The translations under genes were made by a program, and so were the position numbers. From a virus (taxonomy: Duplodnaviria > Heunggongvirae > Uroviricota > Caudoviricetes): a DNA stretch of 25,312 nucleotides. Positions 1-23,304 of this stretch are shown piece after piece. The stretch lies in IMG/VR virus record IMGVR_UViG_648276668_000012; one strand, 5' to 3'. Numbering within the stretch: the stretch's first letter is position 1; every line of letters starts with the position of its first letter. Below the pieces are notes generated by a model. It ran no database searches. It saw only the letters and a list, made by a program, of their open reading frames with translations, and was not told where the DNA came from.

Positions 1-1056
1 TTATTGCGGGGTAATGCCAACCGCTGCCGCCACTTTGTCGCCATTTGGTAACGTTGCCAGTGGATTGAAACGGAGCGCCGTTTCCAAATGATCCGGTGCC
101 AGATGCGCATAACGCATAGTCATTTTTATATCGTGGTGTCCGAGAATTTTTTGTAAGGCCAAGATGTTTCCACCCGACATCATGAAGTGCGCCGCAAACG
201 TATGGCGCAGAACGTGTGTCAGTTGACCGCGAGGGAGAACGATAGACGTTTTTTCCATCACGGATAAAAATTGAAAATAGCAGTCTGTGAAGAAATTGAA
301 CCCATCGAGCGCCATGATCTCTTCATAAAGCTCTTTACTGATAGGGATGCTTCTGTTTTTCTTCCCCTTCGTTCTCACAAAGGTGATTCGGTACTTGGTG
401 ACCTGTGAGCGGGTAAGATTGATTGCTTCTCGCCAACGTGCGCCTGTACTTAGACATATTTTTACCACCAGTGCCAGAATTGGGTTCTGACGTTTGCAGT
501 CAGACAGTAATTCGATAATCTGCTCATGTGTAAGCCATGCCATTTCCTTTTCTGCGATAGTGAATTTGCGCATCTTCTCTAATGGGTTTGGAAGTGTCCA
601 TTCACCCAGGCGGGAAAGTTCTCTGAAAACGCTGCTTAGATGGCTTTGCTCCAGGTTAACAGTAACTGGGCTTGCTCCTTTCTTCCATTTTTCACTGAAG
701 TAGATTTCACCAGTAAGGCGTTTATCGCGATAGTGAGCAAACATTTTTGAGGTGAGATCAGTTGCAAGGGGATTTCCCAAGGCGTCAACCATCAACAGCA
801 GCTTGTTGTAGACATGCTGTCCGGCAGTAAGAGATTTGCCATGTAATTTGAACCATAGCTCAACCATATCTTTCAGTGTCCGACGATCCACTGATTCGCC
901 CAGCCAGGGCTTTGCTTCTATTTCCCCCATGGTGTATCGCTCGAAGGCCAGTGCTTCGCCTTTGGTGGCGAATTGTTTACGCACACGGCGTCCGCTACGT
1001 CCGGCGGGGTAACATTCGCAAAGCCATTTCCCTGTGGTTAGTTTTCGTACTGCCAT
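1..1056 (-). CDS. int: Tyrosine site-specific integrase (P2/186 family)
   Basis: 351-aa ORF; C-terminal catalytic region with conserved tyrosine-recombinase residues (HxxR ... MTMRYAHLAP); GGAGGG RBS 8 nt upstream of the ATG; sits at the prophage edge next to the repressor module. Confidence 0.9.
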   Translation of the reverse strand: MAVRKLTTGKWLCECYPAGRSGRRVRKQFATKGEALAFERYTMGEIEAKPWLGESVDRRTLKDMVELWFKLHGKSLTAGQHVYNKLLLMVDALGNPLATDLTSKMFAHYRDKRLTGEIYFSEKWKKGASPVTVNLEQSHLSSVFRELSRLGEWTLPNPLEKMRKFTIAEKEMAWLTHEQIIELLSDCKRQNPILALVVKICLSTGARWREAINLTRSQVTKYRITFVRTKGKKNRSIPISKELYEEIMALDGFNFFTDCYFQFLSVMEKTSIVLPRGQLTHVLRHTFAAHFMMSGGNILALQKILGHHDIKMTMRYAHLAPDHLETALRFNPLATLPNGDKVAAAVGITPQ

Positions 1057-1134: not shown

Positions 1135-1506
1135 TCATAAGTACCGATATGATTGCGGGGCCGTTATGTTATCACCTAATGAACTTAGATGAAGTGGTTG
1201 GTCATAGATTTTTAGATTACCAATTTCTATAGCAAAGGCCTTTTCTTTGCTATGAAAATATGAGTCAAAAAATTGTTTACTGATACCCGCGTATTGGCTT
1301 GTTTTTTCCCATACAATACTCGGCTTGCCTTCTATAACATCTGCAATGTCAAATTCAGCAACAACTTTACCGACAGGCATTGTTGAATAAATAACCACAG
1401 ATTTTACATCCGGGTTTTTGAAAATACCTTTCCTGAATTCAAACTTCTTTGTTCCATTAAGAATTTTTTCAACAAATTCAGGTTTTATTGACAATAACAC
1501 TTTCAT
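1135..1506 (-). CDS. ASCH-domain (PUA-like fold) protein
   Basis: 123-aa ORF; N-terminal 'LSIKPEFVEKILNGTKKFEFRKG' matches the ASCH-domain signature by recall; AT-rich codon usage unlike the phage backbone. Confidence 0.6.
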   Translation of the reverse strand: MKVLLSIKPEFVEKILNGTKKFEFRKGIFKNPDVKSVVIYSTMPVGKVVAEFDIADVIEGKPSIVWEKTSQYAGISKQFFDSYFHSKEKAFAIEIGNLKIYDQPLHLSSLGDNITAPQSYRYL

Positions 1507-1711
1507 CTACAGCACCAAGTTTAATTATATCGTCAAATTGCTTATCGGTTAATTTAACAACACCCCAACGGTTTTTAGGATTCAAACCAATTTCTTCGAT
1601 TAGTTTAGCACGATTTATTCTTTTAGGTAAAGCTAGATTATATGTAAAACTAATAATGTAAGGGTATCTTTTTGTTTGATAGAATTTTTTTAATTCATTT
1701 TCAGAAAACAC
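1478..1711 (-). CDS. Hypothetical small protein (77 aa), overlaps the ASCH gene by 29 nt
   Basis: ORF with GTG start and no clear Shine-Dalgarno; different frame from the downstream ASCH ORF; could be a separate coupled gene or an artefact. Confidence 0.35.
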   Translation of the reverse strand: MFSENELKKFYQTKRYPYIISFTYNLALPKRINRAKLIEEIGLNPKNRWGVVKLTDKQFDDIIKLGAVDESVIVNKT

Positions 1712-1851
1712 ACTGTATCGTGCACAATACTGTATGAATTCATTTTCACTATGAAAAGAATCAATATATCTAATATCTTCAACTACACATAATGACGTTG
1801 CGACAGAACGATAGTATGCTCTGTTCTCTTCGTCACTTGTTCTGTAAACAA

Positions 1852-2553
1852 CTAATATGTCATGTTTTTTATTTTTGTTACATCATGCATTCTGCATATG
1901 TATATTTTTCTAATGCTGTTAGCATGAGATACATCCGTTATTATATCTGGAGATTCGGTGACGAGTTTTGAATCCGGAAAAAGTTTAGTATGAAATTTAG
2001 GGTATATTGATAATAGATATTTGCTCTCATTATTTTTATTGTTTATATATGGGTAATCAGAAAGAATATCTCCTGTGAGGTGATCTCTATTCATCTCTCT
2101 TACTAAGACATTTTCTATACCATTTGCGGTTTTTTTTGTGCCATGAAGAATGAATCCATAAAGTTTGAATAGTTTTATTAAATATTCATGTTTTTCAAAT
2201 ACAGTAACATAAATATCATTAACTTTTTCTTTTAAAGCATGGTCAAATATTTTTTTAAAAACGTTGTCCTCGTAATGTTTTTTTGTGTTGAACTTAAAAG
2301 TTCCAATTTTCAAATGCTTATCGTTAACGATTGATGGTGTAACATCTGTTATTGTACCGTGCTCAATTTTTAAATACATAAAACCATCAATGGTATTATC
2401 GTCATTATAAAGTACATATGCTTTTTCTTCTGGATTCAGGCTTTTTTTGTTAAACCATTCAATAAAACCGTGTTTATAGTCATTTTTTAATGAATCAAAG
2501 AATATATCATCAAAATTTACTTGACTGAATGGAATAAGCTTTAAATTTTCCAT
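1852..2553 (-). CDS. Hypothetical protein (233 aa), cargo island; possible acyl-transferase-like fold (weak)
   Basis: Uninterrupted 233-aa ORF, AT-rich, co-oriented with flanking genes; C-terminal segment 'EKHEYLIKLFKLYGFILHG' loosely resembles the GNAT motif B region, but no clear motif A. Confidence 0.5.
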   Translation of the reverse strand: MENLKLIPFSQVNFDDIFFDSLKNDYKHGFIEWFNKKSLNPEEKAYVLYNDDNTIDGFMYLKIEHGTITDVTPSIVNDKHLKIGTFKFNTKKHYEDNVFKKIFDHALKEKVNDIYVTVFEKHEYLIKLFKLYGFILHGTKKTANGIENVLVREMNRDHLTGDILSDYPYINNKNNESKYLLSIYPKFHTKLFPDSKLVTESPDIITDVSHANSIRKIYICRMHDVTKIKNMTY

Positions 2554-2580
2554 GTTGCCCCCTGTTTAATTTTTGTGTGA

Positions 2581-3651
2581 TTATCTTCTATAGGTCAAAA
2601 GGTGAATTAATATATATATTGCAATAGCTAGGATTGCTCCACATATATAATATGTGCCTGTCGGTATGAATTTAAGAATAAAAGCAAAGGCGGCACCATA
2701 TATCAAGTATGCGAAAATTTTACTGAATTTTGTTTTCGTGTTTTTAAACTTCACAACAACAGAGAAGTCATTTAGTCTTGCTTTTTTATCATTAACAATC
2801 TTCCAATGGTAAATCATAGGATCGTGATCACCAAATGAAATATCCTTATCGAAATATTTTGTCCATGTTTCAGACTCTAATATTCTACATCCTTTATAAC
2901 TTGAACCAGATGCTGAACATTCATCAACAATATCTCTAATGATAAACAAATGTGTTTTTAAAGGCGTACAAGCGGCGCTCGCCAGAGTTGTAGCGATTTC
3001 TGAAGGTAGGTTTCTTTGTTCATTGATCCTAAAGTCAATAATATCAGAACGCTCAATATTGCTTTTGAGAAAGAGATCTTTGGGATAAAATGTTTTTACT
3101 AAAATACCTATATCATCAATGTTGAGTTTAACGCGAAATCTCAAGTAATGTGGAGCGTCCTCTGAAGATAGGCAATCTTTTAGCTTGAAAACAATAAAAG
3201 TACCATTATGTATTTTAGTTACCTTAACTCTACGGTCAAGTTCACCACCACTAAAAGTTAGCTTTGTATTAACAACTAAATCACCTTTATTCGCGAGTAC
3301 TAATTTTAAATGTCTGACGTCTACAGTTTTGGTATTAATAAGATACTCATTAAAAACAGCCGTTACGAGATCTCGGCTTGACTCGAGATTTTCACTAAGA
3401 TCCGAAAAAAAACAGTTTTCTTTCTCAAATGGTAAAAATATGCATATTGCGCCATGATTTGCAATAGTATCGTCATCGGGTTTTTCAAACGTAATACCAA
3501 AATCTAAATAACCAAATTTATGAGCACTTAGATTCCAAAAGTTTATATGCAACTCATTAATAAAATTCTTGTGTTCAGGGTTATAGGTCGAGCTCGAATC
3601 ACTGCGATAATCCCTGCATCCCCAGACAGCAAAACTTTTTGACATAAACAT
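2581..3651 (-). CDS. Hypothetical protein (356 aa) with C-terminal double transmembrane anchor
   Basis: Long AT-rich ORF; last ~45 residues form two hydrophobic helices (IFAYLIYGAAFAFILKF ... YYICGAILAIAIYILIHLL); no recognisable catalytic motif. Confidence 0.55.
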   Translation of the reverse strand: MFMSKSFAVWGCRDYRSDSSSTYNPEHKNFINELHINFWNLSAHKFGYLDFGITFEKPDDDTIANHGAICIFLPFEKENCFFSDLSENLESSRDLVTAVFNEYLINTKTVDVRHLKLVLANKGDLVVNTKLTFSGGELDRRVKVTKIHNGTFIVFKLKDCLSSEDAPHYLRFRVKLNIDDIGILVKTFYPKDLFLKSNIERSDIIDFRINEQRNLPSEIATTLASAACTPLKTHLFIIRDIVDECSASGSSYKGCRILESETWTKYFDKDISFGDHDPMIYHWKIVNDKKARLNDFSVVVKFKNTKTKFSKIFAYLIYGAAFAFILKFIPTGTYYICGAILAIAIYILIHLLTYRR

Positions 3652-3673
3652 TTCCTTATATCATAGTAAGTTA

Positions 3674-4240
3674 TTATACATCTGATAATATTTTTCGATA
3701 GCATCTTGCGATGGGTTTAATATCGTCAAGCATACAATCAAAAGATGTTTGTCCACTGCTAACTTGCACTCTCCCAACTGGAATTCTAACCAGATCACGA
3801 GAACTTATTTTTCCTTCTATTTCAACAATCCATTTCCCATCAATAATTTCATCAAATTTCATGTCTACTAGATAATTATCTGATAACTCAGAAAATATTG
3901 CGGGGGTAATCATATCCTCCGGGAGCAAATCTTTATCAAAAATGTAAGAGGAATCACCTTGTAGCTTGCCATCTACTATTTTGTAATGTGGCAATTTTAT
4001 ACCTTCTTTCGTTGCCTCAAGACGAGGGGAACCAACACCAGACACTAACCACTCGAGAGACACTCCCGTTTCTAGAGCGCACTGGATTACCCAATCTGCT
4101 GGAAAAATATCACGCATATAGCGCGTTGCCATGGTGCTCTTAGAAACACCTAAATGATCACAGAGAGCCTGACGGGTACCGAACCCATATGCTTCAACTA
4201 AACGTTCTATGGCTTTCTTACCGCCGCTATTGAAATCCAT
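3674..4240 (-). CDS. cI: CI-type immunity repressor (186 CI-like)
   Basis: Protein 'MDFNSGGKKAIERLVEAYGF...CALETGVSLEWLVSGVG' resembles the 186 CI N-terminal DNA-binding domain; chosen start has GGAG RBS 6 nt upstream (the track's longer ORF to 4327 lacks this); position between int and apl/cII. Confidence 0.75.
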   Translation of the reverse strand: MDFNSGGKKAIERLVEAYGFGTRQALCDHLGVSKSTMATRYMRDIFPADWVIQCALETGVSLEWLVSGVGSPRLEATKEGIKLPHYKIVDGKLQGDSSYIFDKDLLPEDMITPAIFSELSDNYLVDMKFDEIIDGKWIVEIEGKISSRDLVRIPVGRVQVSSGQTSFDCMLDDIKPIARCYRKILSDV

Positions 4241-4267
4241 AAGTTCTCCAAAGAAATCCAAAATTCG

Positions 4268-4296
4268 TTGACAGATTCCAAAAGCGATCTTAAAGT
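4268..4296 (+). promoter_or_regulatory. Candidate rightward early promoter (pR-like): TTGACA-N17-TAAAGT
   Basis: Perfect -35 hexamer TTGACA at 4268-4273, 17-nt spacer, -10-like TAAAGT at 4291-4296, about 90 bp upstream of the apl start. Confidence 0.4.
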
Positions 4297-4385
4297 TGAA
4301 CCAGAAGTGTTCTTTTGGAGCCTTCACTACTAATCACGACAAACAACGGCTCGCCACAAGCCATATCTAGAAGGAATGTTGCCTT

Positions 4386-4644: not shown

Positions 4645-5163
4645 TTGAAAACCATGTTTGATTACCAAGTTTCCAAACATCCACATTTTGATGAAGCCTG
4701 TCGTGCATTCGCACTGCGCCACAACCTGGTGCAACTGGCAGAATGTGCAGGCATGAATGTACAGATTCTGCGGAACAAGCTGAACCCAGCTCAACCTCAT
4801 TTATTAACCGCACCAGAAATCTGGCTGCTTACCGATCTGACTGAAGATTCAACGCTGGTAGATGGTTTTCTGGCTCAGATTCACTGCCTGCCATGCGTAC
4901 CGATTAATGAGGTGGCAAAAGAGAAACTGCCGCATTACGTCATGAGTGCAACTGCTGAAATTGGGCGTGTCGCGGCAGGTGCGGTTTCTGGCGATGTAAA
5001 AACCAGTGCCGGTCGTCGTGATGCTATCAGCAGCATTAACTCTGTAACACGACTGATGGCGCTGGCCGCTGTTTCATTGCAGGCCCGTTTACAGGCTAAT
5101 CCTGCGATGGCGAGTGCAGTTGATACCGTGACTGGCCTCGGTGCTTCATTCGGTTTGCTGTGA
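4645..5163 (+). CDS. cII: CII-like lysogeny establishment regulator (186 CII family)
   Basis: N-terminus '[20 protein letters not shown]' and C-terminus '...[21 protein letters not shown]' closely match the remembered 186 CII sequence; true start may be the ATG at 4654. Confidence 0.8.
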
Positions 5164-5170
5164 GGTGCTT

Positions 5171-5371
5171 ATGCTGACGAAAGAACCATCATTTGCATCG
5201 CTGCTGGTAAAACAAAGCCCGGCAATGCACTACGGTCACGGCTGGATCATGGGGGAGGATGGTAAACGCTGGCATCCGTGCCGTTCACAAGATGAATTGC
5301 TGGCAGAACTATCTACGAATAAACGGGGGAACAAATGGCTATTGAAGGCGCTGCGGCGACTGTTCCATTAA
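5171..5371 (+). CDS. Hypothetical early protein (position equivalent to 186 fil)
   Basis: ATG at 5171 preceded by GAGG; 66 aa; assignment by position only. Confidence 0.45.
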   Translation: MLTKEPSFASLLVKQSPAMHYGHGWIMGEDGKRWHPCRSQDELLAELSTNKRGNKWLLKALRRLFH

Positions 5372-5676
5372 GCCCCGGTGAACGCCTGAATGGACTTAAT
5401 CACATTGCGGAATTAAGGGCGAAAGTATTTGGCCTGAATATTGAGTCAGAACTTGAGCGGTTTATTAAAGATATGCGTGATCCACGGGATATCAATAATG
5501 AACAAAATAAACGGGCACTGGCTGCCATATTCTTTATGGCAAAAATTCCAGCTGAACGTCATAGCATCAGCATTAATGAGCTGACCACTGACGAAAAGCG
5601 GGAGTTGATTAAAGCAATGAATCATTTTCGTGCAGTGGTGAGCTTATTTCCCAGACGGCTAACCATGCCGAATTAA
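5335..5676 (+). CDS. Hypothetical early protein (113 aa)
   Basis: ORF in the early rightward operon with backbone-like GC; overlaps the upstream ORF by 37 nt. Confidence 0.5.
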   Translation: MAIEGAAATVPLSPGERLNGLNHIAELRAKVFGLNIESELERFIKDMRDPRDINNEQNKRALAAIFFMAKIPAERHSISINELTTDEKRELIKAMNHFRAVVSLFPRRLTMPN

Positions 5677-6204: not shown

Positions 6205-7058
6205 GCACCATCCTGAAATGGGCGGGTAATAAAACCGTCATTATGCCAGAACTGAAAAAATACCTTCCTGCTGGCCCGCGACTGGTTGAACCTTTCGCGG
6301 GTTCTTGTGCTGTGATGATGGAGACGGATTACCCCAGCTATCTGGTTGCGGATATTAATCCTGATTTAATCAACCTCTATAAAAAGGTTGCCGCTGATTG
6401 TGAATCGTTTATATCTCGCGCCAGAGTTTTATTTGAGAACGCAAACAGGGAGATGGCTTATTACAACATAAGGCAGGAGTTTAATTACTCAACTGAAATT
6501 ACTGATTTCATGAAAGCGGTATATTTCCTGTATCTCAATCGTCACGGTTACCGTGGTTTATGTCGCTATAACAAGAGCGGGCATTTCAACATTCCCTATG
6601 GTAATTATAAAAATCCGTATTTCCCTGAAAAAGAAATTCGCGCATTTGCAGAAAAGGCCCAGCGAGCCACGTTTATCTGCGCCAGCTTTGATGAAACGCT
6701 GGCGATGTTGAAGGCGGGGGATGTGGTGTATTGCGATCCGCCTTATGACGGTGCGTTTTCCGGCTATCACACTGACGGCTTCACTGAAGATGACCAGTAT
6801 CACCTGGCATCCGTTCTTGAACATCGGTCATCAGAAGGACATCCGGTCATTGTTTCTAACAGTGACACATCCCTGATCCGTTCGCTGTATCGCAATTTTA
6901 CTCACCACTACATCAAGGCAAAACGCAGCATTGGCGTGGCAGCTGGTGAGAGTAAATCTGCAACAGAAATCATCGCTGTTTCCGGGCCGCGCTGCTGGGT
7001 AGGATTTGATCCTTCGCGTGGCGTGGATTGTTCCGTCGTGTACGGAGTGCGTGCATGA
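6201..7058 (+). CDS. dam: DNA adenine methyltransferase (Dam family, N6-adenine)
   Basis: N-terminal 'ILKWAGNK' AdoMet-binding motif and catalytic 'DPPY' motif ([10 protein letters not shown]); GGAGG RBS; ATGA overlap with the upstream gene. Confidence 0.85.
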
Positions 7059-9469
7059 GCCATGCTGATATGAACAACTGCAGCGGCTTTAACGAGGTCG
7101 CCGCAGCATTCTCATGGAACAGCCCGAAAAAGGCCATTAACCCTTATCTGGACCCGGCGGAAGTTGCGCCGGTTTCTGCGCTTTCAAACCTGATCACTCT
7201 GTACGCTGCCGATAACGAGCAGGAACAACTGCGCCGCGAGGCACTGAGTGATCAGGTCTGGGAGCGTTATTTCTTTAATGAATCCCATGATCCTGTCCAG
7301 CGCGAAATGAAGCAGGATAAGCTCATTAGCCGGGCAAAGCTGGCGCATGAGCAGCAGCGTTTTAATCCGGATATGGTCATTCTGGCGGACGTCAACGCCC
7401 AGCCTTCCCATATCAGCAAGCCGCTGATGCAACGTATTGAATACTTTAGCAGCCTGGGCAGGCCAAAGGCTTATTCCCGCTATTTACGTGAGACGATTAA
7501 GCCATGTCTGGAACGACTGGAGCATGTACGCGACAGCCAGCTATCTGCATCTTTTCGCTTTATGGCAAGCCATGAAGGGCTGGACGGCCTGCTGATCCTG
7601 CCTGAAATGAGTCAGGATCAGGTGAAGCGCCTGTCTACCCTTGTCGCCGCGCATATGAGCATGTGCCTTGATGCAGCTTGTGGTGATTTGTATGCCACCG
7701 ATGACGTTAAGCCAGAAGAAATCCGCAAGACATGGGAAAAGGTGGCAGCGGAAACCCTGCGTCTGGATGTCATCCCGCCTGCGTTTGAGCAACTCCGCCG
7801 GAAAAGAAACCGCCGTAAACCCGTGCCCTATGAACTCATTCCGGGTTCGCTGGCGCGTATGTTGTGCGCCGACTGGTGGTACCGGAAATTATGGAAGATG
7901 CGTTGCGAATGGCGGGAAGAGCAGTTGCGTGCTGTTTGCCTGGTCAGCAAAAAAGCATCTCCCTATGTCAGCTATGAAGCCGTGATGCATAAACGTGAGC
8001 AGCGCCGTAAGTCGCTGGAGTTTTTCCGTTCTCATGAACTGGTGAACGAAGACGGCGACACGCTGAACATGGAGGATGTGGTAAACGCCAGCAGCAGCAA
8101 CCCGGCGCATCGCCGCAACGAGATGATGGCCTGTGTTAAAGGCCTGGAGCTTATCGCGGAAATGCGTGGTGACTGCGCCGTTTTCTACACCATCACCTGT
8201 CCGTCACGTTTCCATTCCACGCTAAATAACGGCAGGCCCAACCCGACCTGGACAAATGCGACGGTAAGACAAAGCAGCGATTATCTGGTCGGTATGTTTG
8301 CTGCATTTCGTAAGGCGATGCACAAAGCCGGGTTGCGCTGGTATGGCGTGCGGGTGGCTGAGCCGCATCACGACGGCACAGTTCACTGGCACCTGTTGTG
8401 TTTCATGCGCAAAAAAGACCGCCGCGCCATTACTGCATTGTTGCGTAAGTTTGCCATCCGTGAAGACCGCGAGGAGCTGGGCAATAACACGGGGCCACGC
8501 TTTAAGTCTGAGCTGATAAACCCGCGCAAAGGTACGCCAACAAGCTACATCGCGAAATATATCAGCAAGAACATTGACGGGCGTGGTCTGGCTGGCGAGA
8601 TCAGCAAGGAAACGGGTAAATCTCTGCGTGATAACGCTGAATACGTGAATGCCTGGGCGTCTTTGCATCGTGTTCAGCAATTCCGCTTCTTTGGTATTCC
8701 GGGACGTCAGGCTTACCGTGAACTTCGCTTGCTGGCTGGTCAGGCGGCAAGGCAACAGGGTGACAAAAAAGCAGGTGCGCCGGTACTGGATAACCCGTGT
8801 CTTGATGCCATTCTGGCTGCTGCTGATGCTGGTTGTTTTGCCACCTACATCATGAAGCAGGGCGGCGTACTGGTTCCCCGTAAATATCACCTCATCAGAA
8901 CCGCTTATGAAATCAACGAAGAGCCGACCGCCTATGGCGATCACGGTATTCGTATTTATGGCATCTGGTCACCCATTGCAGAGGGCAAGATCTGCACTCA
9001 TTCAGTGAAGTGGAAAATGGTTCGTAAAGCCGTTGACGTTCAGGAGGCGGCAGCCGACCAGGGCGCTTGCGCCCCTTGGACTCGTGGCAATAACTGTCCC
9101 CTTGCTGAAAATTTGAACCAACAGGAGAAAGATAAATCAGCTGATGGGGACACCAGAACGGACATTACCCGCATGGATGACAAGGAGTTGCACGATTACC
9201 TGCACAGTATGAGCAAAAAAGAGCGCCGGGAACTGGCTGCAAGGTTACGCTTGGTGAAACCGAAACGGCGTAAAGACTACAAACAGCGAATTACAGATCA
9301 TCAGCGACAGCAGCTCGTTTATGAGCTGAAGTCCAGAGGATTTGATGGCAGCGAGAAAGAGGTCGATTTACTCCTTCGCGGCGGCAGTATTCCGTCAGGA
9401 GCAGGCCTGCGTATCTTCTATCGGAACCAGCGTCTGCAGGAGGATGATAAATGGCGGAACCTGTATTAA
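7055..9469 (+). CDS. A: Replication initiation protein A (rolling-circle nicking endonuclease, P2 gpA family)
   Basis: About 805 aa; contains the HxH-type motif 'VHWHLLCF' and a tyrosine-rich active-site region 'YIAKYISKN'; start ATG overlaps the dam stop (ATGA). Confidence 0.85.
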
Positions 9470-9621: not shown

Positions 9622-9810
9622 ATGCAGGACTATTTTTTGGAGTCTTTGAAGCTCCAGCGCATTGATTTTTTTCTTAAGCTTGTAGCGGCTAGTGAGTGTA
9701 GTGATGAAGAGAAGGGGCTGGCTCTGCAGTGGGTTTCTGAGTTGACTGATGAACTCATGGCAAAAATCAGAACTCACGAATACAACCGCTCAATGGATGT
9801 CATCAGTTGA
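9622..9810 (+). CDS. Hypothetical protein (62 aa), first gene of an SOS-controlled pair
   Basis: AGGAGG RBS immediately upstream of the ATG; preceded by the LexA box. Confidence 0.5.
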   Translation: MQDYFLESLKLQRIDFFLKLVAASECSDEEKGLALQWVSELTDELMAKIRTHEYNRSMDVIS

Positions 9811-9820
9811 GGTGACTTTT

Positions 9821-10054
9821 ATGCGCATTGAAATAATGATCGATAAAGAGCAGAAGATTAGCCAGTCTACCCTGGACGCCCTTGAATCAGAGCTTTACCG
9901 CAATCTGCGCCCCCTATATCCAAAAACGGTAATTCGCATCCGCAAAGGTAGCTCTAACGGTGTGGAACTGACCGGACTGCAACTGGACGAAGAAAGAAAA
10001 CAAGTGATGAAAATTATGCAGAAGGTGTGGGAAGACGACAGCTGGCTGCATTAA
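9821..10054 (+). CDS. tum: DinI-family protein (Tum-like antirepressor module)
   Basis: 'MRIEIMIDKEQKISQSTLDALESEL...VWEDDSWL' aligns by eye with E. coli DinI (MRIEVTIAK...ETWESADDWF); GAGGTG RBS; LexA box upstream of the pair. Confidence 0.75.
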   Translation: MRIEIMIDKEQKISQSTLDALESELYRNLRPLYPKTVIRIRKGSSNGVELTGLQLDEERKQVMKIMQKVWEDDSWLH

Positions 10055-10213
10055 GAAAAGTTGCTGGCGTCTGAACTTGGTTCTGGCGTCAGCAAGGTTG
10101 AACAACGAGTACAGTGAGGCGTTAGGTGTGGCGTTTATTTGATGAGTGAGCGCCCGTTCTGCGACAGGTTCGGAGATTAAGGTTGAAACTACGGGCAAAA
10201 TACCATCTTTTTC

Positions 10214-10639
10214 CTACTTAATTGAGTCCAGTAACAAGTTACAGTTACTCTCATTGTAGAGAGAACGAGCAATTAGTGTTACCTGCTTTCCATTCATTCC
10301 CGGCTTATCCCATAACACAGCTTCTTGCGACGCCACAAATTCAGCATAATCAATTATGCGTTGTTCGTGATCTGGTTCCTCATAGCCAAAGTATGAGAGC
10401 GCATCGTTGTAAGCGTGGTAAGCTGCTTTCTGTAATATCTTGATATCGGCTGTAGGTACTTGCTCCGTGTAGCTAGGATCTAATTGTGTGCTACTGCCAT
10501 AGAATGCACATGAAAGGTAAGATATTGATTTCTGTTGAGCTTTAGTTCCTTTCTCATAGTTTTTAGCTGTTACCGCCTGAACTGGGACGCTAACAAAGCT
10601 TGCAACCAGAATTAAAATTAATACGTAAAAGCTTTTCAT
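10214..10639 (-). CDS. Hypothetical secreted/periplasmic protein (141 aa) with N-terminal signal peptide
   Basis: N-terminus 'MKSFYVLILILVASFVSVPVQAVTA' is a typical Sec signal peptide; AT-rich; opposite orientation to flanking genes; at the P2 tin/old-equivalent position. Confidence 0.55.
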   Translation of the reverse strand: MKSFYVLILILVASFVSVPVQAVTAKNYEKGTKAQQKSISYLSCAFYGSSTQLDPSYTEQVPTADIKILQKAAYHAYNDALSYFGYEEPDHEQRIIDYAEFVASQEAVLWDKPGMNGKQVTLIARSLYNESNCNLLLDSIK

Positions 10640-10912
10640 TTTGACCTCAGCCGAAACGTTAGAGAGACTATCGAAATTTGTAAAACCCGTGGCGATTCAG
10701 TTTGAGATCCTCCCCCTTACATGATTTTTAATCAAATATATGCTTTTGTAAGCATACCTGTTAACCGAATTATTTATTTTTAGAGATCTTCCGACATACT
10801 GATTATGCCCGCTGAGGAGTTCACCTTGCGTAAAGTCCGATTCGCTTTACTCGTCTGTGCATGCCTATGCTGCATGAGATTGCATGATCGTTTGAGGATC
10901 GTTTTTGCTAAG

Positions 10913-10936
10913 GCCCGCCAGAACTGGCGGGCTTTT
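10913..10936 (+). terminator. Rho-independent terminator (GC hairpin plus T-tract)
   Basis: GCCCGCCAG-AA-CTGGCGGGC perfect 9-bp stem followed by TTTT. Confidence 0.5.
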
Positions 10937-10981
10937 GCGTAGATCATGCACCTGCATGAAAACCACTATATAAAGCGGGCA

Positions 10982-11000
10982 GGCGTGGCGGGGATACGAG
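10982..11000. other. Candidate cos (cohesive-end) site
   Basis: GGCGTGGCGGGGATACGAG matches the first 13 nt of the remembered 186/P2 cos 19-mers (GGCGTGGCGGGGAAAGCAT / GGCGAGGCGGGGAAAGCAC); GGGGATACG repeats 22 bp downstream; lies on the portal-gene side as in P2. Confidence 0.5.
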
Positions 11001-11087
11001 CGCGCGCTGATGGGGATACGGTGTTTTTAGTAAGGTTATGAGGTAGAATTTGACGCGGTTTTTTTAAGCATATTGAGGTGTAAATAG

Positions 11088-11633
11088 ATGGATGCTATTA
11101 CTGGATTATTGGATTTTTTTAGAAAGATTCCAACGGCACTTCTTGTAGCTATTACATGTGGTTTAAGTTTGATCCTTTTTTTGCCAGAATCTTTAGCTTC
11201 TAAAGTTGCGGTTGATGGTTTCCGTAAAGAATATAGAAATTTCATAGGACCAGCATTTTTACTGGCTGTCTCTTTTTTAGTTGCAAGAGTATATCAGTTT
11301 TTTCATGACCTATATGGCGATAGACAAAGGCACAAAGTACGTATCTCTTATTTGGAGAAGCTAACTCCTGAGGAGAAGGGATACCTCTGGTCTTATATAA
11401 TTGATGGCGAAAACTCACTAATGTGTGGTCCTGAAGATGGTGTTATGGGGGGGTTGGTTGCTAAGCGCATAACCTATAGAGCTGCAAACGTGGGCAGTAT
11501 GATTGACGGATTCGCTTTCAATTTGCAGCCGTGGGCTCGCGAGCATTTACAGAACAACACTCATTTATTAGAAGGAGCGGTCGGTAGGGCAATGACACCG
11601 GGTGAGAAACTAGGATTCAGGCGTAGATTTTAA
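11088..11633 (+). CDS. Hypothetical inner-membrane protein (181 aa, two N-terminal TM helices); possibly SieB-like superinfection exclusion
   Basis: Two hydrophobic helices (IPTALLVAITCGLSLILFL; IGPAFLLAVSFLVARVYQFF) followed by a soluble domain; lies between cos and portal gene Q, where P2 has no gene; lower GC than backbone. Confidence 0.5.
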   Translation: MDAITGLLDFFRKIPTALLVAITCGLSLILFLPESLASKVAVDGFRKEYRNFIGPAFLLAVSFLVARVYQFFHDLYGDRQRHKVRISYLEKLTPEEKGYLWSYIIDGENSLMCGPEDGVMGGLVAKRITYRAANVGSMIDGFAFNLQPWAREHLQNNTHLLEGAVGRAMTPGEKLGFRRRF

Positions 11634-11677
11634 CCAGTCGCACACAGGCGATGCTTGACTGGTTAGACAGGGATAAT

Positions 11678-12715
11678 CTATTCAGCGTTCAACTGGTAGG
11701 GGTCAAAAGATATTATTGGCTCATTTAACCATTCGTTAAGTTCTTCAAGTCGCTTTTGTAAAGGAATTAACTCATTTCGCACAAAAACGCGGCTGGCCTT
11801 TTCCACATCCCCAAAACCTCCAACATTATTTGGCATAATCCCCATCATTTGCGGCGGCACGCGGTGCGCCGCCATCATGTCATCCCGGCTCACGTTCTTG
11901 ATGTTTAGAAACTCATCCTTTGCTGCGACCTCTGACAACGGGATGATCTGAAGCCCATCCTTTTTGCCGTTAGGCGAGTACATAAACAGGTTGCGGAAGT
12001 TGCCCGGACCTTTGGCGCTTTTCATCGCGTTGCGGAGGTTGTTTACGTCCTCCTGGTTCTGCGCAGCATCGGTCATGTACATGATGAAGCCTGCATGACT
12101 GCCGTTAATGTAATACTTGCGGCGGAACAGCGTGGCGGACTCGTTGAGCAGGGCTGACGGAATGGCAGAAAGATAACCGGGCAGGCCGTAGATCTCCTGG
12201 TTAATGTCCGGTTCCATCAGATGAAAAATGCTTCCTTTCGTGAACTGATACGGCTGGGTTGTCATACCGTATTGCACAAACCAGTAGGTATCCAGGTCTA
12301 ACCCGCGTCGGGTGTATTTTGCTAGTGCAGGCTCAAGGGCGATAACTTCACCGAAGCGGTTCGTGCGTTTCTCCAGGTAGGCGTTACCAAATACCAGATA
12401 GTCCTGCACAAAACGCGAAAAAGCTTGCTGGCTGAGCAGAGGATGAGGGATATAGGTACTGGTCAGAATGTTGCACTTTACTGCAATCGGGGAACTGTGA
12501 TGCACGGCAGCGCGGAAGGTGCGCGCCAGTCCGTCAAAGCTGACGGGCGGCTCATACCAACGGTCCATCTGTACGCATTCCACATAGTCCAGTAATTCTC
12601 GGCGGTCCAGAACAGGAACGGGATCGCCGAAGCTGAATGCTTCGGCTGAAGTCTGGCTTTTATTCTGGTTCTGGTTCGTCGACGCAGTGCGGTTTTTCTT
12701 ACTCTTTCCCATCAA
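11678..12715 (-). CDS. Q: Portal protein (P2 gpQ family)
   Basis: 345 aa, size and position match P2 Q; 4-nt overlap with upstream terminase ATPase gene; leftward P-Q operon divergent from O-N-M-L. Confidence 0.85.
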   Translation of the reverse strand: MMGKSKKNRTASTNQNQNKSQTSAEAFSFGDPVPVLDRRELLDYVECVQMDRWYEPPVSFDGLARTFRAAVHHSSPIAVKCNILTSTYIPHPLLSQQAFSRFVQDYLVFGNAYLEKRTNRFGEVIALEPALAKYTRRGLDLDTYWFVQYGMTTQPYQFTKGSIFHLMEPDINQEIYGLPGYLSAIPSALLNESATLFRRKYYINGSHAGFIMYMTDAAQNQEDVNNLRNAMKSAKGPGNFRNLFMYSPNGKKDGLQIIPLSEVAAKDEFLNIKNVSRDDMMAAHRVPPQMMGIMPNNVGGFGDVEKASRVFVRNELIPLQKRLEELNEWLNEPIISFDPYQLNAE

Positions 12716-17183: not shown

Positions 17184-17277
17184 CAGAACGTGCCCCGCGC
17201 ACGGGCGGCACGGGGTGGCGAAAGGCACAGCCACATCAAAACTCCGTCCACCGCCCTCTATTTCAGGAGAAAGCAGC

Positions 17278-20482: not shown

Positions 20483-21427
20483 TTAAATTTCGGATTTGGT
20501 TTCAAGGTTTCTCAATGTATTCGGTATCAATGTTTCACTGAATCCAGAAAGCGCACAAATCACATAAATGGAGAATGAGATGTCACTACTATTATTCATA
20601 AACCCGAAGATAATATTCCCCTTGAGCATAAAGTATACAAGTACGCCAGCCATCATTGAAAGGAGTATTCTCTCCGCACCATAGAAGAAATAAGTTTTCT
20701 TTTTTAGTTCTCTGTCTGTATGGAGGCTTTTTATTTTTAGGGATACAGAAATAAACCCCCCGATGGAAGCAAAGGAAGCGGCGTATAACACCACTGGAAT
20801 AAAGTGATTAGCTTTTATGAAATTAGAATCTCTAGCCAAATATGTTATCAATGCAAGGATGATGAATATCAATGCTAAAGTTATGGCTCCTGATTGATAT
20901 AAATTCCTTCCAAGCATTGTGTTTTCATAATCGTTTTTAATGTCTCTATTTATTGCGGCGAAGTTATTTTTGTTTATATCATTTTTTCCAAGTATTGTTG
21001 CTGACATAACTGTTGCTGCTCTTTTTTTATAAATAGAAGAGCAGTTGTATTTGTAGCAATGTGAAATAAACTCATCAAAGTGCTCTTTTGAAGCATGATA
21101 TCTATCAATCTTACTGTCATCCTCCTCAATGATTGAGTCTATGAAAACGAGCATAGACTCATGAGGCGGAAGATTGGCTACTTCATAAATGACATATTCA
21201 TCCCCACGTGAATAAATTTTACTTATGGTGTTTCCACCCAAATCTGTTCCACCAACGACGTATTTGCCAATTCTTTCTTGCTGTTTTTTTTTGTATTCAT
21301 CCCTCTCCTTCTTTGTAGGTGGGGGATTGATGGGATCATTCATTGCATCCATGGGGACAATATTATCTTGCTCAGCTGCTTCTGGGGTATTGGTGTTAGT
21401 TGTCATTTTTTGTGTAGTTAATGTCAC
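20483..21427 (-). CDS. Hypothetical cargo protein (314 aa): N-terminal soluble domain plus four C-terminal TM helices
   Basis: AT-rich ORF on the strand opposite to the tail operon, between S and V; hydrophobic helices at roughly residues 170-300; own terminator. Confidence 0.6.
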   Translation of the reverse strand: MTLTTQKMTTNTNTPEAAEQDNIVPMDAMNDPINPPPTKKERDEYKKKQQERIGKYVVGGTDLGGNTISKIYSRGDEYVIYEVANLPPHESMLVFIDSIIEEDDSKIDRYHASKEHFDEFISHCYKYNCSSIYKKRAATVMSATILGKNDINKNNFAAINRDIKNDYENTMLGRNLYQSGAITLALIFIILALITYLARDSNFIKANHFIPVVLYAASFASIGGFISVSLKIKSLHTDRELKKKTYFFYGAERILLSMMAGVLVYFMLKGNIIFGFMNNSSDISFSIYVICALSGFSETLIPNTLRNLETKSEI

Positions 21428-21474
21428 AAGGAAAGTGGATATAAATATACAAATAGTACAAATAAAATCAACTT

Positions 21475-22053
21475 ATGAACGCACAACTGACTGAAATCAT
21501 GCGCCTTATCACCAATCTGATCCGCACAGGTGTAGTCACCGAAGTGGACCGGGAGAACTGGCTTTGCCGGGTGAAAACGGGCGACCTTGAAACCAACTGG
21601 ATCAGCTGGCTGACCCTGCGTGCCGGGAATGCCCGCACATGGTGGAAACCATCGGAAGGTGAGCAGGTGGTGCTGCTGAGTCTGGGCGGCAATCTGGAGA
21701 CCGCCTTTGCGCTGCCCGCTGTCTATTCGAATCAGTTCGCACCACCGTCGACGTCGGCGGACGCCTGCGTGACAGAACATCCTGACGGTGGCTGGTTTGA
21801 ATACGAACCCGCCACCGGGCGCTGGTATGTCAGGGGCATCAAATCAATGGTCATTGAGGCCGCTGACAACATCACCATGAAAACCAGTGAGTTTGTACTG
21901 GAGGCTGACCGCACGCGCATTAACAGCGAAGTGGTGATCAATGGTGGCGTTAACCAGGGCGGCGGAGCGATGAGTTCTAACGGGATCGTGGTTGATGCGC
22001 ATCAGCATACTGGCGTCCTGAAAGGCGGCGATACAACCGGAGGCCCGGTATGA
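21475..22053 (+). CDS. V: Baseplate spike / assembly protein V (P2 gpV family)
   Basis: Strong similarity by recall to P2 gpV (RTG.V.E.D......CRV.TG...T.W..WLT.RAG..RTWW.PS.GEQV; GG.MS.SSNG). Confidence 0.88.
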   Translation: MNAQLTEIMRLITNLIRTGVVTEVDRENWLCRVKTGDLETNWISWLTLRAGNARTWWKPSEGEQVVLLSLGGNLETAFALPAVYSNQFAPPSTSADACVTEHPDGGWFEYEPATGRWYVRGIKSMVIEAADNITMKTSEFVLEADRTRINSEVVINGGVNQGGGAMSSNGIVVDAHQHTGVLKGGDTTGGPV

Positions 22054-22409
22054 CGCTTTATAGCGGGATGAACAATACCAGCGGCAAAGTCATTACTGAT
22101 ATTGATCATCTGCGCCAGTCGGTGCGGGACATTCTGCTGACACCGCAGGGTAGCCGTATTGCCCGCCGGGAATATGGTTCCCTCCTGTCGGTTTTAATAG
22201 ATCAGCCACAAAATCCGGCATTACGCCTGCAGGTCATGTCGGCAGTGTATGTGGCGCTGAGTCGCTGGGAGCCACGGCTGACGCTGGATTCCATCACCAT
22301 CAACAGCAACTTTGACGGTTCTATGGTGGTGGAGCTGACCGGGCGGCGGAATAACGGTGTGCCTGTGTCCCTTTCCGTATCAACAGGAGCAGAGAATGGC
22401 AGTGATTGA
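22050..22409 (+). CDS. W: Baseplate protein W (gp25-like lysozyme fold)
   Basis: 119 aa; ATGA overlap with V; conserved position. Confidence 0.85.
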   Translation: MTLYSGMNNTSGKVITDIDHLRQSVRDILLTPQGSRIARREYGSLLSVLIDQPQNPALRLQVMSAVYVALSRWEPRLTLDSITINSNFDGSMVVELTGRRNNGVPVSLSVSTGAENGSD

Positions 22410-23304
22410 CCTTTCGCAGTTGCCTGCACCGCAGATTGTGGATGTGCCGGACTTTGAGACGCTGCTTGCCGAACGCAAGGCAGAATTTGTGGCGCTTCAT
22501 CCGAAAGATGAGCAGGAAGCCGTGATCCGAACGCTGGAACTGGAATCTGAACCCGTCACTAAATTGTTGCAGGAGAACGCTTACCGTGAGTTGCTTCTGC
22601 GCCAGCGCATTAACGAAGCCGCGCAGGCGGTGATGGTGGCTTACGCGATGGGCGGCGATCTTGACCAGCTCGCTGCCAACTACAACGTGACACGCCTGAC
22701 GGTGACGCCTGCTGATAATGATGCTGTGCCGCCCGTTGCAGCTGTGATGGAAAGCGATGAAGCGTTACGCCTGCGTGTGCCTGCAGCCTTTGAAGGGCTT
22801 TCTGTTGCGGGGCCAACTGCAGCTTATGAATTTCATGCCCGAAGCGCCGACGGTCGGGTGGCGGATGCCAGTGCAACCAGCCCGGCACCTGCAGAGGTGG
22901 TGCTGACTGTCCTTAGCCGCGAAGGCGATGGAACTGCAGAAAAAGACCTGCTGGACGTGGTGGAAAAAGCTCTGAACAGTGAGAACGTCCGCCCGGTGGC
23001 TGACCGGCTGACGGTTCGCAGCGCAGAAATCATCCCGTATCGCGTGGAAGCCACCATTTTTCTCTATCCGGGACCGGAAGCAGAGCCGGTAATGGCAGCG
23101 GCAAAAGCCAGCCTGCAGAAGTACATCGCCAGTCAGACGCGTCTTGGTCGGGATATTCGCCGTAGCGCCATCTTTGCCGCCCTGCATGTTGAGGGTGTGC
23201 AGCGTGTGGAGCTGGCTTCTCCTCTGGCGGATGTGGTCCTGAACAAAACACAGGCGGCATCATGTACGCAGTGGAGCGTAACCAACGGAGGAACGGATGA
23301 ATAG
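22396..23304 (+). CDS. J: Baseplate assembly protein J (P2 gpJ family)
   Basis: ATG at 22396 with GGAG RBS; N-terminus 'IDLSQLPAP..V...DFE..LAERKA' and C-terminal 'LGRDIR.SAI.AALHVEGVQRVELA.PLADVVLN.TQA' match P2 gpJ. Confidence 0.88.
   Translation: MAVIDLSQLPAPQIVDVPDFETLLAERKAEFVALHPKDEQEAVIRTLELESEPVTKLLQENAYRELLLRQRINEAAQAVMVAYAMGGDLDQLAANYNVTRLTVTPADNDAVPPVAAVMESDEALRLRVPAAFEGLSVAGPTAAYEFHARSADGRVADASATSPAPAEVVLTVLSREGDGTAEKDLLDVVEKALNSENVRPVADRLTVRSAEIIPYRVEATIFLYPGPEAEPVMAAAKASLQKYIASQTRLGRDIRRSAIFAALHVEGVQRVELASPLADVVLNKTQAASCTQWSVTNGGTDE

Follow-up and report, generated by a model that had tools for sequence, protein, structure and literature searches.

A candidate toxin-antitoxin-type cassette with a conserved membrane protein between cI and int of a 186-like prophage

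The window (the whole 25,312-nt stretch of phage DNA analyzed here) carries an AT-rich island between a 186-type cI repressor gene and a tyrosine integrase gene (Table 1). The strong AT richness claimed in the original prediction was confirmed by measurement, with a GC content of 26-34% in 300-nt windows over positions 1201-3900 versus 41-57% in flanks of up to 8 kb. Likewise, the four open reading frames (ORFs) predicted between cI and int were all present, with the sizes given for them and on the minus strand. In the annotation of phage 186, cI (22433-23011) and int (21423-22433) share one base, in agreement with the claim that these genes are essentially adjacent in such phages. As they overlap in phage 186, about 2.6 kb of extra DNA must have been inserted in this prophage.

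Table 1. Features of the cI-int region (positions in the window)
Feature	Position	Strand	Description
int, tyrosine integrase	1-1056	minus	Pfam Int_N and Phage_integrase; downstream boundary of the island
GevA-like / PDC-M11B gene	1135-1506	minus	123-aa ASCH-domain protein, ZmASCH family; putative antitoxin
GevT-like / PDC-M11A gene	1478-2553	minus	N-terminal GNAT acetyltransferase and C-terminal domain; disrupted
GNAT gene fragment, 77-aa ORF	1478-1711	minus	
GNAT gene fragment, 233-aa ORF	1852-2553	minus	
GNAT lesion 2	1864-1865	minus	A-run contraction by 1 base (A7 to A6); frameshift, stop at 1852-1854
GNAT lesion 1	2256-2277	minus	2-base loss at 2256 (T6A8 to T5A7, coding strand) and 1-base loss at 2277 (A8 to A7)
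Gene X	2581-3651	minus	356 aa; beta-rich soluble domain (about residues 1-305) and C-terminal two-helix membrane hairpin
cI repressor, 186-type	3674-4327	minus	Pfam Phage_CI_repr and Phage_CI_C, E about 1e-30

In phage 186, cI and int belong to one annotated lysogenic operon with the promoters pL and pE. By analogy, cI, which bounds the island upstream, would be the first gene of such an operon here, and transcription of int would run through the island. The island genes all lie on the same strand, with intergenic gaps of 22, 27, and 78 nt, and a terminator scan revealed no convincing terminator inside the island. As the promoter and terminator scans gave results at or below chance, they were not counted as signal evidence. 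The shared strand, the short gaps, and the phage 186 operon annotation suggest that the island is cotranscribed with cI and int. Being placed inside this operon, its products would be made in the lysogen along with the repressor.

The number of island genes, predicted to be three or four, is three, as the 233-aa and 77-aa ORFs are parts of one broken gene. Both fragments match the profile PDLC04419 (PDC-M11A), the former over profile positions 11-231 of 357 (E 6.3e-79) and the latter over positions 284-357 of 357 (E 3.9e-22), and both match phrog_6345. Furthermore, relatives that are 99.3% identical at the DNA level have one uninterrupted ORF of 359 aa, so that a reading as four separate genes was ruled out. 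The reading frame of the C-terminal part really extends from 1876 to 1481. The C-terminal domain is possibly EVE/PUA-like, judging from weak profile matches (Pfam EVE, E 0.017 in 3 of 14 members; hhalign probability 2.9%).

Three or four homopolymer contraction events separate the window copy from an intact gene, and every one of them lies within the GNAT gene. The losses that make up lesion 1 together restore the reading frame but change TLRGQRFLKK to HYEDNVF-KK. Residues R95, G96, and R98 of the GNAT protein are invariant across 40 homologues, and in the predicted structure the rewritten stretch is located between a strand (residues 75-88) and a helix (residues 96-109). In GNATs, the acetyl-CoA-binding loop is found between such a strand and helix. 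As the gene has lost an invariant loop and is frameshifted further downstream, the cassette in this copy is probably inactive as a toxin-antitoxin pair; as sequenced, X and the putative antitoxin gene alone are intact.

The lesions could be sequencing errors, since all of them shorten long A/T runs by one base; the GNAT gene contains 5 of the 13 runs of at least 7 nt in the window. However, no frame-broken backbone gene was found across about 21 kb. Backbone frameshifts that would have shown a poor assembly were thus not seen, and the indel at 17192 is intergenic. If the lesions are real, the island could be a decaying remnant in this prophage, with a dead toxin gene and with an antitoxin gene and X that persist by inertia or anti-addiction and confer no present phenotype. 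We regard this as quite possible, though short of an even chance. In addition to the split ORF and the destroyed loop, it is favored by independent GNAT lesions in two other lineages. Among distinct P2-like loci, the long GNAT gene was damaged in 3 of 12 (the window, L003, and L004/L023, the last with W33*), while damage was found in 0 of 11 copies of the equally long gene X and 0 of 12 ASCH genes. The 242-aa "partial" protein P0088 was rejected as a common truncated allele, as a contig end cuts the protein. In contrast, the same island is present with an intact GNAT gene in seven Escherichia coli genomes, a near-identical intact allele being that of E. coli strain A30 (NZ_CP092500.1, 2911993-2915189). 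The gene is also intact in L001, L002, and other loci, and X and the ASCH gene are intact in the window itself, which argues against general decay.

The ASCH domain predicted for the 123-aa product was recovered by Pfam (ASCH, E 2.6e-6) and, with far stronger support, by the PADLOC profile PDLC04425 (PDC-M11B, E 3.9e-49); the protein also matches phrog_3136. Its gene lies directly downstream of the GNAT gene on the same strand, and the two overlap by 29 nt in intact relatives. Purifying selection was detected on all three island genes (dN/dS 0.035-0.12), with a value of 0.035 for the ASCH gene, which encodes a basic protein (pI 9.0). A family profile built from 14 partners matched ZmASCH (ZMO0922; PDB 5GUQ/5GUS) over its full length (for 5GUS, E 4.7e-28, positions 2-127 of 130), and the island protein is thus a full-length family member of the GKER octapeptide group, ASCH family 2. 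The octapeptide GxKxxExR reads GTKKFEFR in the window. In the partner alignment, K20, E23, R25, Y40, P117, and Q118 are invariant and the octapeptide G18 is nearly so (at least 90%). Of the ZmASCH residues required for binding or cleaving RNA, Tyr47 corresponds to Y40 and Ser128 to S119, while Lys53 corresponds to G46 with K47 adjoining and is only partly conserved.

ASCH proteins have been reported to remove ac4C from tRNA. ZmASCH itself has been described as binding single-stranded RNA and as a weak RNase in vitro, but tRNA ac4C was unchanged in vivo and free ac4C was not a substrate. The YqfB-type amidohydrolases, which act on free ac4C, differ in having Thr instead of the octapeptide Glu. 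ZmASCH also differs from the island protein in context, as it was studied alone and without a link to a toxin.

Gene X encodes a protein with the C-terminal double-transmembrane anchor that had been predicted. The helices span residues 309-327 and 333-355 in the AF2 model and residues 311-330 and 331-355 by Kyte-Doolittle analysis. Neither X nor 61 diverse relatives matched any entry in Pfam, PADLOC, PHROGs, or NCBIfam. A UbiA hit (E 0.038) was discarded, since it was far below threshold and covered the transmembrane tail alone. Comparison with the PDB returned generic beta-sandwich fold matches only, with no informative structural or sequence homologue, and relatedness to the ASCH protein or the GNAT C-terminal domain was rejected at hhalign probabilities of at most 0.5%. 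The family is large and unnamed, comprising 1,304 representatives. In a genome scan, a narrow X alignment found matches in only 3 species genomes. As X has no informative homologue, any role assigned to it is a guess.

The original prediction did not recognize the island as a named system, which no longer holds for two of its three genes. The GNAT and ASCH genes correspond to the PADLOC candidate PDC-M11, one of 145 phage-defense candidates proposed by Payne et al. (bioRxiv 10.1101/2024.01.29.577857), and to the genes annotated as GevT toxin and GevA antitoxin in Escherichia phage PhiR47_2 (GenBank PV340567.1). Components A (both GNAT fragments) and B (ASCH) of PDC-M11 are strongly matched, adjacent, and on the same strand. 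The island departs from the two-gene PADLOC model in that the A gene of the window copy is disrupted by the frameshift and the rewritten loop, and in that a conserved gene, X, is added that is absent from PADLOC. In PhiR47_2, gevT is followed by gevA with overlapping ends, the same order as in the island, directly after cI at a position expressed in the lysogen. GevT is 57% identical to the intact GNAT allele over the full length (E 1e-140), and GevA is 62.6% identical to the window ASCH protein over 100% of the query. However, PhiR47_2 is lambdoid and has no X gene. The GevT and GevA roles come from the GenBank annotation alone, and no paper was found in the literature searched that contains "GevT" together with "antitoxin". 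One further mention of PDC-M11 was found in the literature, in a PADLOC hit list; no paper was found that ties ASCH plus GNAT to defense, nor any experiment on a member.

Two further kinds of toxin-antitoxin system share or may share features with the pair. TacAT, AtaRT, ItaRT, and KacAT have single-domain GNAT-fold toxins of about 160-175 aa, preceded by an upstream gene for an RHH/DUF1778 DNA-binding antitoxin. The GNAT fold is shared, and aminoacyl-tRNA acetylation is a plausible kind of target for the island protein. In contrast, the predicted island toxin is 359 aa long, carries an additional domain, and would be paired with a downstream ASCH antitoxin. No RHH or DUF1778 match was found in the island, and beyond generic GNAT similarity no match to these systems was obtained in PADLOC, Pfam, or NCBIfam; on its protein families and gene order, the set is not a member of the GNAT/RHH type II group. 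In DarT/DarG, a transferase toxin ADP-ribosylates DNA, an enzymatic antitoxin reverses the modification, and the outcome is abortive infection. The island may share this writer/eraser logic, but the chemistry would be acetylation rather than ADP-ribosylation of DNA, the folds are unrelated, and reversal by the ASCH protein is suggested by what has been reported for other ASCH proteins.

It is somewhat more probable than not that the island is a three-gene X-GNAT-ASCH accessory cassette of the cI-int operon that functions in abortive infection or exclusion in the manner of a toxin-antitoxin system. The toxin would be the GNAT protein, which would transfer the acetyl group of acetyl-CoA to an RNA-linked target (e.g., cytidine or the amine of an aminoacyl-tRNA), and its putative C-terminal PUA/EVE-like domain may help to hold nucleic acid. 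The antitoxin would be the ASCH protein, small and basic, which could act either by binding to the toxin or to the RNA on which the toxin works, or by removing the modification or the modified RNA. X might be a cytoplasmic partner tethered to the membrane, linking the pair either to a trigger or to an output at the level of the membrane. The suggestion that the island is a defense module thus stands in part. The linkage of the membrane protein with the ASCH protein is conserved far beyond this phage, and the genes form one module, probably of a defense or toxin-antitoxin kind. However, the membrane protein was cast as the putative effector, which is one possibility among others, and both the GevT annotation and the gene-decay pattern point to the GNAT protein as the toxin.

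The antitoxin role of the ASCH protein is supported indirectly by transposon sequencing of Dickeya dadantii 3937, in which the homologous prophage ASCH gene (Dda3937_01763) was classed as essential. This gene adjoins a GNAT gene and lies two genes from an essential cI. However, the Dickeya GNAT gene was classed as "growth defect" and not as "non-essential". Were the GNAT protein the only toxin, this would be surprising, unless insertions had polar effects on the ASCH gene and a still active fragment remained, or a second toxic protein, e.g., X, were present. We considered whether X is a toxic membrane effector neutralized by the ASCH protein, with the GNAT protein as a regulator or sensor that acetylates a partner or a phage product. 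X is membrane anchored and was never found damaged, a close relative of Dickeya 3937 has X upstream of the pair, and the Dickeya classes could be explained if polar effects abolish ASCH expression while a toxin gene farther upstream stays in place. Nevertheless, this arrangement appears unlikely, as phages without an X gene also carry an ASCH protein annotated as antitoxin, decay affects the GNAT gene, the locus tags of Dickeya 3937 leave no room for a further gene between cI and GNAT, and no pore-forming or enzymatic homologue of X was found.

The three-gene cassette reading also requires that X belong with the other two genes, for which its genomic neighborhoods provide the evidence. Twelve distinct prophage loci, representing at least 5 genera, share the order cI-X-GNAT-ASCH-int, with X falling to 49% identity. 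All 9 distant X homologues (21-38% identity) adjoin an ASCH gene of the PDC-M11B type (E 1e-26 to 1e-44) and a short GNAT gene. These counts cover loci with usable flanks, two loci having been left out because of contig ends. The distant loci come from Cedecea, Vibrio, Propionispira, Prolixibacteraceae, and metagenomes, i.e., from several phyla, and usually consist of overlapping ASCH-X-GNAT genes. Some of the surroundings are defense-like, as one locus lies directly behind the type I restriction-modification genes hsdM/hsdS (L013), one near a KAP NTPase gene with DUF4917 (L029), and one near DUF4231 (L030). Another locus is found among polysaccharide-synthesis genes (L028). Among X loci with adequate flanks, none lacked the partners, and X is therefore a conserved third partner of the ASCH-GNAT module.

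The converse does not hold. Lambdoid phages and SopEPhi carry the ASCH-GNAT pair but no X, the SopEPhi pair lying at a different P2 cargo site, and three sampled E. coli relatives (L003, L037, and L038) have the layout cI-260aa-GNAT-ASCH-int, with a 260-aa gene unrelated to X. Partial matches to the region were present in 1,084 of 5,426 complete genomes, about a fifth, and most of them share coverage and about 77% identity with these three relatives, which suggests that the 260-aa gene occupies the X slot in most E. coli relatives. As the pair is common without it, X is not required. X could then be a stand-alone membrane protein for exclusion or single-gene defense, placed beside a GevTA/PDC-M11 pair in a stacking hotspot. 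The two-gene PADLOC model would agree with such separate units, as would the SieB-family exclusion gene that is present at another cargo site of the same prophage. However, separate units are distinctly improbable given that even remote X homologues, outside prophages and in other phyla, are flanked by both partners in 9 of 9 loci with usable flanks, and that gene order there differs, with frames that often overlap.

Comparison with related prophages, which had been suggested as a check, showed that the island is accessory cargo at a site of variable content. The cI-int site is empty in phage 186, holds X-GNAT-ASCH in the window and seven E. coli genomes, and holds the 260-aa gene with GNAT-ASCH in the sampled common relatives. 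The cassette is therefore of the prophage cargo-hotspot kind, with a fixed position between backbone genes and differing content, here within the lysogenic operon. A cI-int cargo hotspot is known in P2-related K139-like Vibrio prophages (Rousset et al. 2022, PMC9122126), although those are phages of Vibrionaceae and neither ASCH nor GNAT occurs in the text of that paper. The lambda RexAB genes are a further parallel as accessory exclusion genes cotranscribed with the repressor. Indeed, gevTA is found at the rexAB position in PhiR47_2, but the island proteins have no homology to RexA or RexB.

A set without any role in conflict, serving RNA modification as writer and eraser (e.g., of acetylcytidine) or lysogenic conversion by cell-surface modification, would suit the tRNA ac4C removal reported for ASCH proteins, the role of GNATs as acetyl writers, and the triad amid polysaccharide-synthesis genes, but it is highly improbable in view of the patchy occurrence on mobile elements in AT-rich DNA, the restriction-modification, KAP NTPase, DUF4917, and DUF4231 neighbors, the essential prophage ASCH gene, the existing toxin/antitoxin annotation, and the lack of effect of ZmASCH on ac4C in vivo.

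Returning to the X-GNAT-ASCH cassette, a broader proposal can be made, which we offer tentatively and consider doubtful as it stands. ASCH-X-GNAT might be a newly recognized, widespread three-component conflict system, comprising about 1,300 X clusters and extending from Enterobacterales as far as Bacteroidota and Negativicutes. X, tethered to the membrane and of a new fold family, would link phage sensing, or an output at the membrane, to a toxin that acetylates RNA and to an antitoxin that is an ASCH "eraser" or RNase. GevTA/PDC-M11, with its two genes, would represent a reduced version in which X has been replaced by the EVE/PUA-like domain of the toxin. If the cassette model holds, a function would be provided for a PADLOC candidate found very commonly in E. 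coli, for the ZmASCH branch of the ASCH superfamily, and for a large protein family that has neither name nor annotation. Furthermore, RNA acetylation and deacetylation would join the chemistries of toxin-antitoxin immunity, and the cI-int junction of 186-like coliphages would be a slot for lysogen-expressed exclusion genes, like the rexAB position of lambda. The intact allele of strain A30 makes the cassette hypothesis directly testable. In the sampled E. coli relatives from the partial-match group, the pair is located in a prophage adjoining rcdA, and the window integrase is 95% identical to the integrases of rcdA-adjacent E. coli prophages.

The AT-rich island between cI and int very probably carries a homologue of the GNAT-ASCH pair PDC-M11/GevTA together with a linked third gene, which encodes the membrane-anchored protein X. 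The block itself was as originally predicted: GC content was 26-34% against 41-57% in the flanks (sliding 300-nt windows, 1201-3900), and four minus-strand open reading frames (ORFs; 356, 233, 77 and 123 aa) lie between cI and int. Because these two genes overlap by one base in phage 186, within its annotated lysogenic operon (pL, pE), about 2.6 kb of foreign-looking DNA is an insertion inside this operon. That the island is co-transcribed with cI in lysogens is a reasonable inference from the strand shared with cI and int, the short intergenic gaps (22, 27 and 78 nt) and a pattern scan that gave no convincing terminator within the island; promoter-like matches in the island were below shuffled expectation and were not counted as evidence. 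A cI-int cargo hotspot is known from K139-like Vibrio prophages (Rousset et al. 2022, PMC9122126), and the island occupies the same kind of site, here in a 186-like coliphage.

Features of the window and of homologous loci
Sequence	Coordinates	Strand	Feature
Window	1-1056	-	Integrase
Window	1135-1506	-	ASCH gene, 123 aa
Window	1478-2553	-	GNAT gene (233- and 77-aa ORFs)
Window	2581-3651	-	Protein X, 356 aa
Window	3674-4327	-	186-type cI repressor
Window	9749-10054	+	DinI-like protein
Window	10129-11726		Second variable cargo site
Window	10214-10639	-	141-aa ORF; no Pfam or PADLOC match
Window	11088-11633	+	SieB-family superinfection-exclusion protein, 181 aa; Pfam E 2e-22
L006 (Vibrio locus)	5000-5563		AAA_17/AAA_18 kinase-like gene
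L012 (metagenomic triad)	2099-2644		AAA_17/AAA_18 kinase-like gene
L003	5559-7298		Stretch with enlarged cI and 260-aa gene between cI and GNAT
L037	4058-5740		Stretch with enlarged cI and 260-aa gene between cI and GNAT
L038	4066-5739		Stretch with enlarged cI and 260-aa gene between cI and GNAT
L035 (SopEPhi, AY319521.1)	2914-4378		orf12/orf13, annotated "unknown"; GevT/GevA-like pair

Three or four genes had been proposed for the island; we found three, as the 233- and 77-aa ORFs belong to one GNAT gene. They aligned to positions 11-231 and 284-357 of the 357-position PDC-M11A profile (PADLOC), both matched phrog_6345, and in the annotated relatives L001 and L002 the site is occupied by one undivided "N-acetyltransferase" gene of 359 aa. 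The whole island is present in seven complete E. coli genomes, with 99.2-99.3% identity in six, and an intact, nearly identical allele of the cassette is available. Compared with the prophage of one such strain, A30, the island lacks four bases; each is missing from the GNAT gene and shortens a long A/T run by one base. Those lost at 2256 and 2277 jointly restore the frame and change TLRGQRFLKK to HYEDNVF-KK, removing R95, G96 and R98. These residues do not vary among 40 homologues and, in the structure model, fall between a strand and the following helix, the place of the acetyl-CoA-binding loop in GNAT enzymes. A further loss at ~1864 causes a frameshift with a stop at 1852. The window's copy thus looks broken and may be a decayed remnant; over ~21 kb aligned to the A30 prophage, no backbone gene was frame-broken, and the sole other homopolymer contraction (17192) is intergenic. 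Yet 5 of the window's 13 runs of at least 7 nt fall within the GNAT gene, so the lesions may be either those of a true pseudogene or errors of homopolymer sequencing.

The 123-aa ASCH protein matched Pfam ASCH and, in PADLOC, PDC-M11B (E 4e-49). The PDC-M11 system belongs to a set of 145 "phage defence candidates," which derives from a guilt-by-embedding analysis of BREX, DISARM and type I restriction-modification (RM) loci and which its authors call untested (Payne et al., bioRxiv 10.1101/2024.01.29.577857); the only further mention found in the literature was one PADLOC hit list. A tblastn search of phage records identified a homologous pair in the lambdoid Escherichia phage PhiR47_2 (PV340567.1), whose 357-aa and 125-aa members are annotated "GevT toxin" and "GevA antitoxin", respectively, and which is located directly downstream of cI, at the rexAB position of lambda. 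Across its entire length, GevT shared 57% identity with the undamaged allele of the window's GNAT gene, and GevA was 62.6% identical to the window's ASCH protein. As our literature search found no paper behind these names, the assigned roles rest on annotation. The original view that the combination is not a named system holds only in part, since the pair is catalogued as PDC-M11 and bears the name GevTA in one GenBank record. In SopEPhi, a Salmonella phage, the pair occupies another P2 cargo site, flanked by a DinI-like gene and the portal gene, and so moves from one phage hotspot to another. Classical GNAT/RHH toxin-antitoxin families differ in antitoxin type, gene order and toxin architecture, placing the island outside them. 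Four longer PDC-M11A profiles (PDLC04417, 04418, 04421 and 04422; 444-501 positions) aligned with the window protein only from position ~90-165 onward, indicating that the N terminus is extended by ~90-165 residues in other branches of the toxin family.

The linkage of X to this pair is the new part; no earlier description of the X family or of its obligate ASCH and GNAT association was found anywhere. The order cI-X-GNAT-ASCH-int was constant in 12 distinct P2/186-like prophage loci (Escherichia, Raoultella, Scandinavium, Brenneria, Dickeya and viral contigs), with X identity down to 49%. Nine distant X homologues (21-38% identity) were picked by available sequence length and taxon rather than by neighbours, and all nine adjoined a PDC-M11B-type ASCH gene (E 1e-26 to 1e-44 in the four scanned by PADLOC) and a short GNAT gene of 155-208 aa, with weak similarity to the GNAT domain of PDC-M11A; two further X loci are cut off by the end of the contig and give no information on partners. 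The commonest distant layout was ASCH-X-GNAT with overlapping genes, and ASCH was divergently oriented in Cedecea and Vibrio. Two distant loci add a kinase-like gene (181-187 aa) whose end overlaps ASCH; one branch may thus have four components. Short GNATs, which lack the additional C-terminal domain, were always accompanied by X, as was the long form in the P2-like prophage loci with X. That X and the pair are independent cargo units is an unlikely reading, though compatible with the occurrence of the pair without X in lambdoid phages, SopEPhi and the sampled E. coli relatives L003, L037 and L038; given the constant neighbourhood elsewhere, we regard X as an optional yet tightly linked partner. 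These three relatives, in which the locus adjoins rcdA, have an unrelated soluble 260-aa protein in place of X, weakly similar in PADLOC to DUF3644 (E 2e-5) and HEC-08 (E 2e-3), and an enlarged cI (299-318 aa) with the N-terminal HTH region in two copies. The region had at least a partial match in 1,084 of 5,426 complete genomes; among the matches listed, most share coverage and ~77% identity with L003, L037 and L038.

Protein X matched nothing in Pfam, PADLOC, PHROGs or NCBIfam, nor did 61 diverse family members in Pfam or PADLOC. Its confident AF2 model (pLDDT 85, pTM 0.80) consists of a beta-rich domain and a C-terminal pair of hydrophobic helices, with lysines before the first helix and arginines at the very C terminus; fold searches returned generic beta-sandwich matches only. 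A word-index search yielded 34 family clusters, while an exhaustive profile search yielded 1,304 representatives (514 at E <=1e-30), extending to Bacteroidota and Negativicutes and absent from isolated phage records. Sixteen residues are invariant, five of them arginines. The association with ASCH and GNAT gives this large unnamed family a testable context.

Purifying selection acts on each of the three genes (dN/dS of 0.12, 0.10 and 0.035 for X, GNAT and ASCH, respectively, in L001 versus L002, an unsaturated pair). In a set of 12 distinct P2-like loci, damage to the long GNAT arose in three independent ways: in the window, by a +1 insertion in L003, and by W33* at an otherwise invariant residue in a Dickeya undicola prophage (L004 ~7205-7207, L023 ~6211-6213), where gene callers give a 311-aa product from an internal start and X and ASCH are intact. 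No damage was found in ASCH (0/12) or the equally long X (0/11). Furthermore, a Tn-seq study of Dickeya dadantii 3937 classed the prophage ASCH gene Dda3937_01763 as essential, alongside the GNAT gene 01764 ("growth defect") and cI 01765 (essential); its curation limited the essential class to promoter-distal genes, against polar artefacts. ASCH essentiality and GNAT-restricted decay fit a GNAT toxin and an ASCH antitoxin. The "growth defect" class is not predicted for a sole toxin and leaves some room for the never-damaged X as the toxin, a role that sits poorly with the decay of the GNAT. Overall, we lean towards a lysogen-expressed toxin-antitoxin-type exclusion or abortive-infection module. 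A non-conflict function seems unlikely; it could be argued from one distant triad among polysaccharide genes, but other X genes have defence-like surroundings, lying directly behind type I RM hsdM/hsdS, near a KAP NTPase and DUF4917, or near DUF4231.

Mechanistically, and quite speculatively, the GNAT might acetylate an RNA-linked target, ASCH might reverse or counter this acetylation, and X might serve as a membrane-tethered sensor or output. NCBIfam PRK12279 ("50S ribosomal protein L22/unknown domain fusion protein") matched the window's ASCH protein (E 1e-13) over the model's C-terminal 120 residues, indicating that relatives of this subfamily are fused to L22. Ribosomal protein L22 is located at the ribosomal exit tunnel, and the fusion hints at a ribosome-linked substrate for ASCH.

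Elsewhere in the window, another variable cargo site separates the portal gene from the replication/DinI-like genes. It does not align with the A30 prophage, which is otherwise 96-97% identical and has ~3.1 kb of other genes there.
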